Of a stretch of DNA of 64,000 bases, positions 17,275 to 21,676 are shown in pieces. Position 1 is the stretch's first letter. Every line of letters starts with the position of its first letter. Below the pieces are notes generated by a model. It did no database searches. It worked only from the letters and a program-made list of their open reading frames with translations, and was not told the DNA's origin. The position numbers and the translations under genes are program-made. The stretch comes from an uncultured delta proteobacterium (GTDB lineage: Bacteria; Myxococcota_A; Polyangia; Haliangiales; Haliangiaceae): assembly GCA_963848295.1 (NCBI GenBank), contig CAWKDB010000010.1:3968001-4032000 (forward strand), written 5' to 3'.

Positions 17275-17717
17275 ATGACTCGATTCCATCGCGCCTGCGT
17301 TTGCCTGGCGGGCACGCTCGTCGTTTCGTTCGGGCTCGTCCGGTCGTCTCGTGCCGAGGGCATCGGCGTGTCGCGCTTCGCGGTCGCGGTCGACACGCCG
17401 GTCAGCTGGGCGAATGGCTCGTTCGCCGCGTCGGCGTACTACGCGCCGACGCAACATCAGGTGCTGCGGCTCAACGTCGCCGCGTACTCGGCCGCGCCGC
17501 CGATCGCCGTGCAGTATCTGGCGCTCGACGCGGGTGGTGACGTCCCGGACACCAGCGGTTATACGAGCGACGTAAGCGTGGGGTGGTCGTACTTCACGCG
17601 CCGCGCGTTCGACGGCTTGTTCATCGAGCTCGCAGGCCTCGGCAGGCTACGCCGCACGAGTGATGACTCGAGCGGCGAGTCCCCGTACCAAGCGCTTCAC
17701 ACGCAGACGCAGGTGCT
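17275..17717 (+). pseudogene. Exported beta-barrel-like protein, 5' part, interrupted by the IS256 element
   Basis: Signal peptide; the frame rejoins 20970-21182 exactly after removing the element and one TSD copy (215 aa in total). Confidence 0.85.
17710..17717. repeat. Left 8-bp target-site duplication CAGGTGCT
   Basis: Identical to 20970-20977. Confidence 0.92.
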
Positions 17718-17807
17718 GGCGTAGTCCCGATCCCTGTTGACATTGAGGTGGCGGTCCAACCGACCCCGAGAGAATTCTCGGGGCTCAAAAACCGGAAGGA
17801 ACCGCCG

Positions 17808-19115
17808 ATGAAGAAGATTGCCAGGAACAGACGCCCCGCGGAAGCCACTCGCCCTCAGCTCCGGACCGTTCTCGGAGAAGTCGCTCGCGACGCGGAGCTC
17901 GCCCTCGGGCTCAGGAACCTCGTGCGCGAGAACCTGCGAGAGTTCGTGATCGGCGCTGGGACCGCCGCGCTGGCCGCAATGCTCGAAGAGGAGCGCACTC
18001 AGATCGTCGGGCCGCGGTACGCGCATCTGCCGACGCGTGAAGCTCGACGATCGGGATCGGCTCCGGGTGAGCTGGTGATGGGAGGTCGACGCGTGCAGGT
18101 CCGACGACCGCGTGCACGTACGCTCGACGGTCAGGAGGTGCAATTGCCCTCGTGGACGGCGTTCGGCGTCGAGGATCCGCTGCGCGAGCGGGCTGTCGAG
18201 CAGATGCTCGTCGGCGTCACGACACGTCGCTACGCTCGATCGCTGGAGCCGCTGCCGGCGGACCTGCCGTCGCGTGGCACGAGCCGTAGTGCGGTGAGCC
18301 GTCGCTTCGTCGCTGCCACCGAGCGGCAGATGGCCGAGTGGCTCGGTCGCGATCTCGGCGCGCTCGATCTCGGCGTGCTCATGATCGACGGCGTGCACAT
18401 CGACGAGCACGTGCTGCTCGTCGCGCTCGGCATCGACGCCGACGGCAAGAAGCACGTGCTCGGTGTTCGCGAGGGCGCAACCGAGAACGCTGCCGCGTGC
18501 ACGGCGCTGCTCGCCGATCTGCGCGATCGTGGTCTCCGCACCGACCGTCCGACCCTCGTCGTGATCGACGGGTCGAAGGCACTCGCGAAGGCGGTGCGCA
18601 ACGTATTCGGTGACCGCGCGATCGTCCAGCGCTGCCAGGCGCACAAGACTCGCAACGTTCTCGACCAGCTTCCCGACGAGATAAAGCCGTCGGTGCGGCA
18701 GGCTTTGCGCGACGCGTACGCCGCGAGCGACGCCGATCGTGCACGTTCGACGCTGACGAACCTCGTGCGTCGTCTCCGGAACGATCATCCTGGTGCGGCG
18801 GCGTCCCTCGAAGAAGGGCTCGACGAGACGCTCGCCGTGAAGCGCCTCGGCCTCCCGAAACAGCTCGAACGGCAGCTCTCAACGACGAACGCGATCGAGA
18901 ACCTCATGGGCTCGGTCCGTCAGCTCTCACGCCGCGTGAAGCGCTGGCGTGGCGGCAAGATGATCTTGCGGTGGACGGTGACAGCTGTCGCCGATGCCGC
19001 AACGCGCTTCCGCAGGATCACAGGTGCGCGCGATGGCATGACCCAGCTGATGCGCGCGCTCGCGCATCACGAGAACTCCATCGCACCCGTTGCATCGCGA
19101 ACGAAGGCCGCGTAG
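17808..19115 (+). CDS. IS256-family (Mutator-like DDE) transposase
   Basis: GVTTRRY, SRSAVSR, LMIDG, VIDGSKAL, QRCQAHKTRN and STTNAIE motifs; intact frame; GGAAGG RBS. Confidence 0.95.
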   Translation: MKKIARNRRPAEATRPQLRTVLGEVARDAELALGLRNLVRENLREFVIGAGTAALAAMLEEERTQIVGPRYAHLPTREARRSGSAPGELVMGGRRVQVRRPRARTLDGQEVQLPSWTAFGVEDPLRERAVEQMLVGVTTRRYARSLEPLPADLPSRGTSRSAVSRRFVAATERQMAEWLGRDLGALDLGVLMIDGVHIDEHVLLVALGIDADGKKHVLGVREGATENAAACTALLADLRDRGLRTDRPTLVVIDGSKALAKAVRNVFGDRAIVQRCQAHKTRNVLDQLPDEIKPSVRQALRDAYAASDADRARSTLTNLVRRLRNDHPGAAASLEEGLDETLAVKRLGLPKQLERQLSTTNAIENLMGSVRQLSRRVKRWRGGKMILRWTVTAVADAATRFRRITGARDGMTQLMRALAHHENSIAPVASRTKAA

Positions 19116-19119
19116 CGAT
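19082..19119 (+). repeat. Direct repeat copy 1 (transposase 3' end)
   Basis: CGCACCCGTTGCATCGCGAACGAAGGCCGCGTAGCGAT, 34/38 identical to 20885-20922. Confidence 0.9.
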
Positions 19120-19159
19120 GCGATGACGACCGCGTCGGAGCCGTGCTACTTCACATGGC

Positions 19160-20860
19160 GTGAGTATCTTCGACCGGTTTCGTAAGACAAAGCAGACCGC
19201 TGCGCCACTGCCGGTCACGACCGCGCCCGAAGTGCCGGTTCGCGCGACGATCGCGACATTCTTGGTCGCCGATGCGGTCGGGACGCTCGCGCTTGAGAGC
19301 GGCGAGGGACTTCGGTTCGGTCGATCGGCGTGTAAAGGCTTCGAACCCGTCGTCGGTGCGTCGGTGATCGTCGAGGAGATCGCTTCCGACCCGCGCGGCT
19401 GGAAGGCTCGGGTCGTGAAGCTCGCTCCAGCCGACGCGAACTACGATGCGTTGCTGTCAGCGCGCGACGCGCAGCAAGGGCTTCCTAGCCGCACCCAGCC
19501 GCCCGCGCAGGCTGCTGCGACGGCGCGCCAACTTGGGATCATCACCGTGTTGCTGGGCGAGCCGTTGCCGACGGGCCACCAGGCTGTGCGTACATGGGCT
19601 GCGGCGCGCGGGTTCCCGCGCGATGGCTTCGACGTGAAAGTCGAGCGCGACCTGGAGTTCGCGATGCCGGGAGGCAACGTGTTGACATACGCGGGGCGCG
19701 CGACGTTCCCGAAAGATGGGCTCGATGCGCGCAACGTGGCCGAGGATTTCGACCTCGGTCGCTCGTTTATCGGCCTCGGCATGGGCCTGCCCGGCGGCGA
19801 GCGTCAGGCTCGAGCGATCCTCGCCAACACGCGCGACTGCTGGGCGCCCGACGGCTCGATGCGCCAGCTCAGCCGACTCGTTTGCATGCTCGCGGACTCG
19901 GCGACGGGCGTCGTGCTGCATCGTGCAGGTGATCTCGTCGTACCGATCGACGAGTTCGTGCGCGCACTCGGCGAACTCGACGATCCTGAGTGTCGGCCGT
20001 TCGCGGCCTGGCTCGATGTCGCGATCACGCGACGCGACGGCGAGGCGAGGTACGCGACGTTCGGCATGGACGTATTCGGCCTGCCCGACGTGCTTGCGGC
20101 GGTGAATGCCGATGATCGCTGGAGTCGGTCGCGCCGCCACGAGGCCGTGCTCTACGCGTGCTATCGGATGATCCGCGACAATCGCGAATTTCAAGCGGGC
20201 GATACGATCTCTGTGCCGGTGCGACTCTCCATCGGAGCGTGGCCACTTGAGATCGACGACCGTGGTGCGGCGACGACCTACGCAGTCACTGATCTCGACG
20301 GCAACCTCGAGCTCGTTGCAAGAGGCGAACTCTCCGTCGACGGCGACATCGCGGTGAACCTCTACCAGGCGCTATTCGATCGCGGCCTCGCCGAGCTCGT
20401 ACCGAGTCACATCGTTCGTGACGTCCCTGCAAACAGCCGGCAACCGCTGGAGCACAACGTCGAGGTGCGCGCACGCGAAGACGGTCGCGGGTTCCTTGTC
20501 GTCACGAACGGGTTTGGCCGCAAGGCGCGGTTTGAAGTCGCTGCGTGGGTCCCCCTCGAGACGCTTGAGCTCGTGAAGCTCGTCGGCGTGCTGGCCTCGT
20601 TCGCGCTCGAAGCGCCAACCGGTTGGAAGGTCGGCGATACGGTCGCTGCACCGATCGAGGAACTGAGGATCGGTGGCTTCGTGATCGCCGACGGCGGCAC
20701 AGTCGCAATGGGCACCGCGCAAAGCGTTCGCATCTTGCTGCTTGTTCCACTCGCCGAGACCGACTACGCGCGCGTGCGCGGCGGTGGTGCCGAGGCGTGG
20801 CTCGCACGCAATCCGCCGACTGAGGCCGCGTGGGATACGTTCATCGCAGCGCCCGACTGA
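19160..20860 (+). CDS. IS passenger protein with CSD/OB-like N-terminus, DUF4261-like middle and SUFU-like C-terminus
   Basis: 566-aa ORF; TFGMDVFGLPDV..GDTI (DUF4261-like); LVVTNGFG..RFEV..GDTV..LLLVPLAETDY (SUFU-like). Domain calls are by eye. Confidence 0.6.
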   Translation: MSIFDRFRKTKQTAAPLPVTTAPEVPVRATIATFLVADAVGTLALESGEGLRFGRSACKGFEPVVGASVIVEEIASDPRGWKARVVKLAPADANYDALLSARDAQQGLPSRTQPPAQAAATARQLGIITVLLGEPLPTGHQAVRTWAAARGFPRDGFDVKVERDLEFAMPGGNVLTYAGRATFPKDGLDARNVAEDFDLGRSFIGLGMGLPGGERQARAILANTRDCWAPDGSMRQLSRLVCMLADSATGVVLHRAGDLVVPIDEFVRALGELDDPECRPFAAWLDVAITRRDGEARYATFGMDVFGLPDVLAAVNADDRWSRSRRHEAVLYACYRMIRDNREFQAGDTISVPVRLSIGAWPLEIDDRGAATTYAVTDLDGNLELVARGELSVDGDIAVNLYQALFDRGLAELVPSHIVRDVPANSRQPLEHNVEVRAREDGRGFLVVTNGFGRKARFEVAAWVPLETLELVKLVGVLASFALEAPTGWKVGDTVAAPIEELRIGGFVIADGGTVAMGTAQSVRILLLVPLAETDYARVRGGGAEAWLARNPPTEAAWDTFIAAPD

Positions 20861-20884
20861 CCGCGCTCATTCACGAAACACGAA

Positions 20885-20922
20885 CGCACCCGTTGCAACG
20901 TGAACGAAGGCCCCGTAGTGAT
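20885..20922 (+). repeat. Direct repeat copy 2 (diverged transposase 3' end before the IRR)
   Basis: CGCACCCGTTGCAACGTGAACGAAGGCCCCGTAGTGAT. Confidence 0.9.
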
Positions 20923-20969
20923 CACCACCGCAACCGTCACCAAGATTCAACAACAGACGGGACATCGCC

Positions 20970-21182
20970 CAGGTGCTCGGCGCGCGCGCGTTGGTCGGCT
21001 GGAGCTGGATGGTGTTTCATCGCGGCTTCATTGCGGTCGCCGCCGGTGCATCGGGCGGCTACGAATGGGGCGCCACGAATCTCTACGGCGACCCGATGTA
21101 TCCGGCCGTGACGTCGCGGATCAGCCGCTTCGACCCCGAATTCGAGTGCTTCATGCGGCTCGGCGCGACGTTCGATCGCTAG
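20970..21182 (+). pseudogene. 3' part of the IS-interrupted exported protein (begins with the right TSD)
   Basis: QVLGARALVGWSW...MRLGATFDR* continues the 17275 frame. Confidence 0.85.
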
Positions 21183-21676
21183 TGATTCATCGCGGGCGGC
21201 GCGGTGAGCGCGCGCATGCGCAGACGCCGCGCACGCCTGCGAGCGGTCTGGTTCTTCACCGTGCTGCGACGCGGCGGCACGAGCGGCTCGGCGCCGTAGA
21301 GCATCGTCATGTGCTCGCGCTGGGTTCTTTCGTTGACGATCGCCTCGGGGATCGGCTCCATCTCGATCGTCGCACTCGCTTTGCGTTCGTGGACGAGGCG
21401 ATCGAGGATGGCGCTGCTCGCCGGCGCGATCTTGCGATAGCCGAGCCGCACGCCACTGTTCGCGACTTCGATGACCTCGAACAAGCCTTCGATCATCGGC
21501 GCGCCGTCGGCGAGTCGGATCGACACGCCGATCATCGAGCCGATCGGCAGACCCTTCGCCGACGGGATGAAGCACGAGTGCTCGTCGCCGAGCTGAGAGA
21601 ACAAGGAGACGAACTCGTCGATCGTCGTGGCCTTCGTCGTGATCGCCATCGCGGAGATGCGGCGCATATTTGCCAT
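21179..21676 (-). CDS. Hypothetical protein with a PilZ-like (myxobacterial TIGR02266-like) N-domain
   Basis: TIDEFV..CFIPS..LPIGS.I.VSIRLADG..IEG..EV pattern; start may be 21667. Confidence 0.5.
   Translation of the reverse strand: MANMRRISAMAITTKATTIDEFVSLFSQLGDEHSCFIPSAKGLPIGSMIGVSIRLADGAPMIEGLFEVIEVANSGVRLGYRKIAPASSAILDRLVHERKASATIEMEPIPEAIVNERTQREHMTMLYGAEPLVPPRRSTVKNQTARRRARRLRMRALTAPPAMNH

Follow-up and report, generated by a model that had tools for sequence, protein, structure and literature searches.

A probable transporter form of an IS256-family insertion sequence, with a 566-residue passenger gene inside its ends, in an uncultured member of the Haliangiaceae

We analyzed a stretch of 64,000 nucleotides from an uncultured member of the Haliangiaceae (assembly GCA_963848295.1, contig CAWKDB010000010.1, positions 3,968,001 to 4,032,000), which we call the window. 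It contains an insertion sequence (IS) of the IS256 family that interrupts a gene and that has, between its ends, a second gene unrelated to transposition. All coordinates are positions in the window unless a contig or locus name precedes them. The genome that the window comes from (G000) comprises 7.78 Mb in 11 contigs and is 85% complete as judged by marker genes. The element occupies 17718–20969 (3252 bp) and lies between two exact direct repeats, CAGGTGCT. The locus is organized as follows; the proximal and distal copies of segment S are two occurrences of the same stretch near the 3′ end of the transposase gene.

17275–17717, plus strand: 5′ part of the target gene, which encodes a secreted-looking protein of about 207–215 amino acids with no family; 51% identity to residues 7–138 of L076:534–1157
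17710–17717, no strand: left copy of the target-site duplication, CAGGTGCT; identical 8-mer at 20970–20977
17718–17755, plus strand: left terminal inverted repeat (IRL), about 38 bp and imperfect; its first 23 bases are GGCGTAGTCCCGATCCCTGTTGA; same terminus in relatives
17808–19115, plus strand: IS256-family DDE transposase, 435 amino acids (PF00872, NF033543); ATG at 17808 with GGAAGGA upstream
19074–19119, plus strand: proximal S, with the last transposase codons, the TAG stop and 4 nucleotides; 85% over 46 nucleotides to the distal copy, at a spacing of 1803
19160–20860, plus strand: passenger gene, 566 amino acids; start conserved in homologues; 44-bp spacer after the transposase stop
20864–20922, plus strand: distal S, a relic of the transposase 3′ end that repeats proximal S; TGA at 20901–20903 and TAG at 20916–20918
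20923–20969, minus strand: functional right end, with the tip of the right terminal inverted repeat (IRR) at 20947–20969; matches the right ends of cargo-free relatives (81–87%)
20970–20977, no strand: right copy of the target-site duplication, CAGGTGCT; identical 8-mer at 17710–17717
20978–21182, plus strand: 3′ part of the target gene; 69% identity to residues 141–207 of the uninterrupted homologue

Both termini are built on GGCG..GTCCCG.....TGTTGA. They agree at 16 of the 23 terminal bases, and the similarity extends over about 38 bp with one gap. When we searched the 7.78-Mb genome with the terminus pattern GGCGWWGTCCCGNNNNNTGTTGA, there were six mismatch-free matches, which are both ends of three copies of the element, and the reversed control gave none. 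An earlier reading of this DNA, made from the letters and their open reading frames (ORFs) without database searches (the sequence-only reading), had claimed that there is no right repeat after the transposase stop, that the matching repeat lies past the 566-residue ORF, and that an exact 8-bp duplication surrounds the full 3252 bp. These claims hold. The stretch that follows the stop (19120–19180) contains no proximal right repeat, as its score against the distal right end was reached by 914 of 2000 shuffles; the IRR tip is found beyond the passenger gene; and the two 8-mers abut the termini.

The sequence-only reading had also claimed that removing the element restores a 215-residue gene. 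If the element and one duplicate are excised in silico, an open frame of 215 amino acids (from ATG 17275) or 231 amino acids (from GTG 17227) is regained. Furthermore, a genome of the same genus (G113) has an uninterrupted homologue of 207 amino acids at locus L076, which aligns with both parts of the target gene and has the same neighboring genes as in the window. L076 is the empty site, in conserved synteny; that reading had proposed a search for empty alleles in related genomes. The arrangement that it had named as speaking against itself, with the cargo at this locus but not the transposase and ends, was not found, as the empty site in L076 has neither cargo nor transposase. As for the target family in general (L076–L084), its members are about 200–250 amino acids long, start with what resembles a signal peptide, and belong to no family in Pfam or NCBIfam. 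They occur in 35 of the 91 genomes of the genus, and the genes are sometimes in tandem (for example, three in G003:C365).

The genome contains three copies of the element.

Copy 1, window 17718–20969, plus strand: duplication CAGGTGCT, 8 bp
Copy 2, C10:3938590–3941841, plus strand: duplication GATTAAGAC, 9 bp; 47 kb upstream of the window copy and outside the window
Copy 3, C10:413649–416900, minus strand: duplication CTGGGTCTG, 9 bp

These copies are 100% identical over all 3252 bp and have different sites and flanks, with no homology among the three beyond the termini. Copies 2 and 3 are in apparently intergenic DNA, just upstream of genes. Because three identical copies carry different duplications of 8–9 bp, the transposase and the passenger are shown to have moved together, recently, as one 3252-bp unit. 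This agrees with the sequence-only reading, which had proposed a single recently mobile unit and had suggested a search for other copies with different duplications. The transposase and the cargo each match just three places in the genome, so it has no cargo-free copy and no free passenger gene. Copies 1 and 2 have the same orientation on the same contig, and the pair could delete or mobilize the 44 kb between them. (The locus extracted around copy 2, L002, is G000:C10:3937090–3943341, 29 kb ahead of the window start.)

Contigs from three public sequencing runs, which we examined as contigs only, give an independent view of the element's boundaries. In X1, which may be the source sample, short-read contigs break precisely at 17718 and 20969/20970 (one contig begins at 17718 and one at 20970), and the contig for the element has a depth of 8.3, versus 3.4–3.9 in the flanks. 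In X2, from another study, two overlapping contigs (18981–19150 and 19144–19310) are 100% identical to the window and jointly cover the junction between transposase and cargo. X3, from a third study, has a contig of about 95% identity that covers 20316–20969 and then continues into 160 letters of a different flank, and another contig in which 56 other letters lead up to 17718. In the cargo part of the X3 variant, nine of the 15 listed differences fall at third codon positions. A joint in X3 from 19416 to 21187, with 21 letters on one side, was taken as spurious.

The transposase is a clear member of its family. It matches PF00872 with an E value of 8.8e-44 and 150.4 bits (cut-off 21) over profile positions 29–376 of 379, and it matches NF033543 with 229.1 bits (cut-off 150). 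Candidate catalytic residues are D194 (in MIDG), D254 (in VIDG), and E364 (in NAIEN), with spacing D-60-D-110-E; we take these motifs to be the catalytic DDE triad, going by the family signature. Relatives of the transposase are 85–90% identical to it. In a plasmid collection, the closest annotated transposases belong to the IS256 family and are at most 47.5% identical (the named ones, ISMyo1 and ISNha10, are at about 44%), and the closest protein in a metagenome protein collection is at 89%. Given these two best matches, the element is a new IS. Target duplications of 8–9 bp are typical of the IS256 family. The element has such duplications, along with terminal inverted repeats that are imperfect and a few tens of bp long. 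It departs from the typical organization of the family, which is one ORF in about 1.2–1.5 kb, by having two ORFs in 3252 bp. This leaves the assignment to IS256 intact because family membership goes by the transposase. A scan for sigma-70 promoters gave 0 sites. A scan for terminators gave four terminator-like sites, all inside ORFs or in the flank and none between the transposase and the passenger gene, and is uninformative, with 1.5 ± 1.2 sites expected.

To place the element among its relatives, we used loci from searches covering 91 genomes. None of our claims depends on G010, a genome flagged as unpublished, alone. In the genus, 11 right ends could be resolved, with the window element counted once. 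Loci that were not resolvable and so were left out of this count are L025, L086, L102, L104, L028, L029, and the shorter fragments L030–L038. The sequence-only reading had suggested that cargo-free copies be sought in the genome and in relatives. The window genome has none, but the same genus does: L022, L023, L040, L027, and L085 are cargo-free elements of 1445–1453 bp, with 77–86% DNA identity over the transposase part. L093 is another cargo-free relative, whose left end is cut. In all six of these, the right end comes directly after the transposase stop. L022 and L085 have duplications of 8 bp. In another family of the class, L092 is an element of 1416 bp with one ORF and a 9-bp duplication.

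At the other five of the 11 resolved right ends, there is DNA between the transposase and the terminal repeat, and four different inserts are found.

G000, window element: insert is the 566-residue passenger; three copies, with duplications of 8, 9, and 9 bp
G018:C912, L095:631–2847, minus strand: 2217 bp; 204-residue secreted-looking passenger with no Pfam family; 8-bp duplication GTTCGGTG; single copy
G028:C7, L026:846–1530, minus strand: gene for a 135-residue lipoprotein between two right ends; left part of the element missing
G016, L024:1906–2947, minus strand: 1.0 kb of GC-rich tandem-repeat filler; junction shared with L103
G110, L103:662–1290, minus strand: 0.6 kb of GC-rich tandem-repeat filler; junction shared with L024

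L095 is a second transporter IS of the same clade (transporter ISs are ISs that carry passenger genes). L026 has two right ends. The proximal one directly follows the transposase stop and is degenerate yet significant (0 of 2000 shuffles reach its score); the distal one, about 560 bp beyond it, is intact and comes with a duplicated transposase 3′ end. In L024 and L103 there is no convincing ORF in the filler, and no target duplication was seen. One of the loci left out of the count, L025:1787–3274 (G018:C1124), encodes a 72% identical transposase and has an intact left end and a convergent AAA-ATPase gene downstream. There is no right repeat within 1.49 kb after its transposase; L025 may have a larger cargo, or the right end may have been lost at a contig break.

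The window element itself bears the marks of a repeated right end. Proximal S recurs at 20877–20922, with 85% identity over 46 nucleotides, or 84.9% over 53 nucleotides if one gap is allowed. The distal copy is a relic, as the TGA at 20901–20903 is in frame. Homology to the cargo-free relatives ends at 19119, four bases past the TAG stop, and the distal right end agrees with those of the relatives at 81–87% over 78–107 bp, transposase 3′ sequence included. If 19120–20922 is removed in silico, what is left is an element of 1449 bp. Downstream of the cargo there is just about 110 bp of right end, and the element has one transposase gene. In the elements with inserts, the distal right-end modules start about 95–125 bp from the tip.

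We therefore consider it very probable that this is an autonomous IS256-family IS with a passenger gene inside its ends, that is, a transporter IS that moved as a 3252-bp unit. An unrelated passenger lies within one pair of inverted repeats, and target duplications flank the whole unit, which is present in several copies. As for how it moves, the transposase would pair IRL with the distal IRR, the 3252-bp unit would be copied out as a circle (a copy-out-paste-in route, by analogy with the family), and it would be pasted in with a staggered cut of 8–9 bp. In the available text of PMC3942029, IS256 is described as moving through circles with 6–10 bp between the ends. Since the proximal IRR is gone, the cargo presumably cannot be left behind and would be an obligatory part of every transposition. 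As for how the passenger was acquired, an IS copy may have sat upstream of the gene and a right-end remnant (about 110 bp) of a related copy downstream, and later loss of the proximal IRR would have fixed the unit. We favor this route with two right ends because L026 shows such an arrangement; the repetition of S at 85% with a spacing of 1803 and L095, a 2217-bp relative with an 8-bp duplication and a 204-residue passenger, also support it. The shortness of the repeated module could reflect survivorship. A functional end must stay, and longer direct repeats would recombine and delete the cargo, so short right-end duplications would be the ones that survive.

Several points weigh against this account. 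The capture route is reconstructed, not observed. Nothing is left of the proximal IRR in the window, so the cargo may instead have been inserted directly into the IS. The right-end modules of the different inserts are similar in length (about 95–125 bp), and survivorship is the sole explanation that we can offer for this. Finally, the contigs from the public runs contain no join of 17717 to 20978 (an empty site), no IRR-IRL junction, and no new insertion, although contigs cannot show rare forms.

The most serious alternative is that an intact IS took up the cargo through template switching or filler capture while the element was being replicated or repaired, and that there was never a second IS downstream. 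The Pack-MULEs of plants, which are Mutator-like elements (MULEs) with captured fragments of host genes, are thought to acquire genes in this way. Joining overlapping synthesis tracts via filler DNA would leave S duplicated on both sides of the insert, as we see, and it would fit the four different inserts at one slot, which include noncoding tandem-repeat filler (L024 and L103). IS256 is also a prokaryotic relative of Mutator according to the accessible part of PMC3942029. However, L026 keeps a whole second right end as well as a degenerate proximal IRR, an arrangement more in keeping with two right ends than with filler capture; the text that we have of the same source reports movement of IS256 via circles rather than excision with gap repair; and no intermediate was observed. 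We consider filler capture rather unlikely.

What does the passenger encode? The 566-residue protein belongs to no family in Pfam or NCBIfam, PADLOC gave only noise (E = 0.038), and a sequence-profile comparison with PDB gave nothing meaningful (best E = 0.052). The ESM Atlas contains one cluster of “hypothetical protein” from Myxococcota at 0.84. In a large protein collection we found 38 homologues, all unnamed or “hypothetical”, and those with an organism name are from Myxococcota. The closest (P0002–P0007) are 87–65% identical to the passenger (87%, 77%, and 72% for P0002–P0004). Within the genus, a homologue is present in just three of the 90 other genomes (65%, 64%, and 32% identity). We examined 36 loci with homologues (19 from genomes, 14 from metagenomes, and L014–L016), of which 15 have the full 4 kb upstream. 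At none of these 36 loci is an IS256 transposase beside the homologue (23–87% identity).

Two of these loci have neighbors that we describe for the record. At L065:6146–7900 (minus strand), the neighbor of the homologue is a 585-residue protein with an ADP-ribosylglycohydrolase and a phosphatase domain of a type named after polymorphic toxin systems. At L041:2645–5605, the 65% identical homologue starts 6 bp after a gene for a ClpX-like AAA ATPase (zinc finger and AAA_2), and a VanY-like gene is next; this arrangement was seen at no other homologue locus.

The AlphaFold (AF2) model of the passenger has a mean predicted local distance difference test score (pLDDT) of 89.7. Residues 22–90 form a predicted cold-shock or oligonucleotide/oligosaccharide-binding (OB) barrel (Z ~10). 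Residues ~392–565 of the model resemble SUFU, with Z = 15.3 to the Neisseria SUFU homologue 3k5j (157 residues aligned, root-mean-square deviation 2.9) and Z = 15.4 to human SUFU 4bla_C (162 aligned, root-mean-square deviation 2.6). Foldseek also matches the C-terminal part to SUFU (E = 2.8e-6); all these matches show the fold only. The Pfam family for SUFU (PF05076) matches 18 of 29 homologues weakly, with a best E value of 1.3e-4. The middle ~300 residues, folded alone, have a pLDDT of 87.5. For this region, Foldseek found no match at E ≤ 0.001, and the best VIA-align matches, to 3k5j (the SUFU homologue, Z = 6.6) and to a CdiI immunity complex (Z = 5.8), are both below a trustworthy level. 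The motif xGDTxxxPxxxxRIGG/A is present twice, once in the middle region and once in the SUFU-like domain (residues ~341–364 and ~487–510, listed at window 19405–19445 and 20640–20700), which hints at an internal duplication of the passenger. When the profiles of the middle region and the C-terminal domain were compared, the match was not significant (probability 2.5%).

The available text of Zhang et al. 2012 (PMC3482391) ranks the SuFu superfamily second in versatility among the classes of immunity proteins in polymorphic toxin systems. Together with the predicted SUFU fold, this leads us to suggest, tentatively, that the passenger is an immunity-type, toxin-binding member of the SuFu superfamily; such a function would pay for the spread of the element. 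The same text gives GxS, E, E, and DxxR as the conserved motifs of Imm-SuFu (Table 3) and reports that multi-domain “polyimmunity” proteins are usually encoded with no toxin gene nearby. Against an immunity role, the window protein itself has no match to Pfam SUFU, and its N-terminal OB fold and middle 300 residues are unexplained. Also, neither a toxin gene nor any other gene is a conserved neighbor among 27 ORFs at 13 homologue loci; this weakens the proposal without defeating it because orphan immunity genes are described, at least in the sections of PMC3482391 that we draw on.

Could the 566-residue protein instead serve this IS lineage as an accessory factor in transposition or as a regulator, for instance as a helper that binds nucleic acid via its OB fold? 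Only 44 bp separate its gene from the transposase stop, both genes are on one strand with no terminator-like site between them, its N-terminal domain is of the cold-shock/OB type, and it is intact in all three copies. Nevertheless, we consider this idea very improbable. The homologues lack an IS256 transposase at 36 of 36 loci, closely related ISs without the passenger (84–86% nucleotide identity) still show 8-bp duplications, and other relatives have unrelated inserts at the same place. The passenger is not a transposition gene: its homologues do without the transposase, and the cargo-free relatives have target duplications.

Finally, could segmental duplication, recombination, or misassembly account for the three copies, in place of transposition of the unit? 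Two of them share a contig and an orientation and are separated by just 47 kb, which might suggest it. The idea is already contradicted, however, and has almost no probability left: the flanks differ from copy to copy, every copy has an exact 8–9-bp duplication of its own abutting the same termini, an independent assembly breaks exactly at the termini, a ~95% variant has other flanks in another study, and a relative has the target-gene homologue uninterrupted.

Overall, this is a new and recently active variant of a transporter IS in a family for which we found no such form on record. IS256 elements are considered simple ISs with one gene, and here one has fixed a whole host gene and has been amplified to three copies. 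Its scars, namely the duplication of the transposase 3′ end and the loss of the proximal repeat, together with relatives at intermediate stages, show how an IS may turn into a gene-carrying transposon. The fillings of the slot that we have seen are a 566-residue SuFu-type gene, a 204-residue secreted protein, a 135-residue lipoprotein, and kilobase tandem repeats. More speculatively, the cargo slot of this clade, which belongs to a soil genus of Myxococcota, might have been filled again and again with different host DNA between the transposase stop and the duplicated right-end module, as in a bacterial and autonomous counterpart of Pack-MULEs, and the window element might be carrying an orphan gene for immunity to polymorphic toxins to new places in the genome and from strain to strain; we hold this extended view as possible but doubtful. 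Because the slot is filled with other DNA in relatives, the clade lends itself to studies of how Mutator-superfamily transposases capture genes in bacteria. Should the passenger prove to be an immunity protein, then, among predatory bacteria of the soil, the element would be a vehicle that spreads protection against toxins of the contact-dependent or the secreted kind. Also, annotation pipelines that end IS256 copies at the transposase would miss such units.

How does the element compare with known systems? With canonical IS256 ISs, it shares the transposase family (PF00872 and NF033543), imperfect inverted repeats, and duplications of 8–9 bp. In contrast to them, and to its cargo-free relatives of 1416–1453 bp with one ORF, it has 3252 bp, a second and unrelated gene of 566 codons, a right inverted repeat displaced by 1.8 kb, and a duplication of ~50 bp from the transposase 3′ end. 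A survey of 109 IS256-family elements, as far as its available text goes, gives the plain IS organization for all of them (PMC3942029). No IS256-family member with a passenger is described in the full-text literature searched, parts of which were accessible and which lies apart from ISfinder, TnPedia, and subscription papers. The sequence-only reading had called the transporter form unusual for this family, and, within the scope of this survey and these searches, it is.

The element is not a composite transposon, as two complete flanking IS copies are absent: there is one transposase gene and ~110 bp of right end downstream. Transporter ISs are a known category, with examples from IS1595, IS1202, and other families in the portions of PMC3129680, PMC9330008, and PMC10132070 that are available. 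Like them, the window element has one transposase and an unrelated passenger in one pair of inverted repeats, a duplication around the unit, and several copies. Unlike them, it belongs to the IS256 family, it carries a long passenger, and its duplicated right-end module indicates how this gene was fixed.

Mobilization by a single IS is another point of comparison. ISEcp1 and ISPme1 are single ISs that move adjacent DNA via a surrogate right end. As in such transposable modules (described in the accessible text of PMC9330008), a single transposase gene moves downstream DNA here, and IRL would be paired with a more distant right end. The distal end of the window element is not a surrogate, however: it matches the right ends of cargo-free relatives at 81–87%, and its S homology and conserved terminus mark it as a true right end from this IS clade rather than a chance look-alike. 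Furthermore, the proximal end has been lost, and the cargo is fixed rather than sporadic.

The passenger resembles Imm-SuFu proteins, as presented in the part of PMC3482391 available to us, in its predicted C-terminal SUFU fold (Z of 15), its multiple domains, and the absence of a toxin gene beside it, as for polyimmunity proteins. It differs from them in that it has no significant Pfam SUFU match, an extra OB fold, 300 unexplained residues, and no known toxin partner. With Pack-MULEs, the element has in common the transposase superfamily, the capture of host DNA between its ends, and different captures that recur in one lineage. Unlike Pack-MULEs, it is bacterial and autonomous (it keeps its transposase), it carries a whole intact gene, and its mechanism of capture is a reconstruction.

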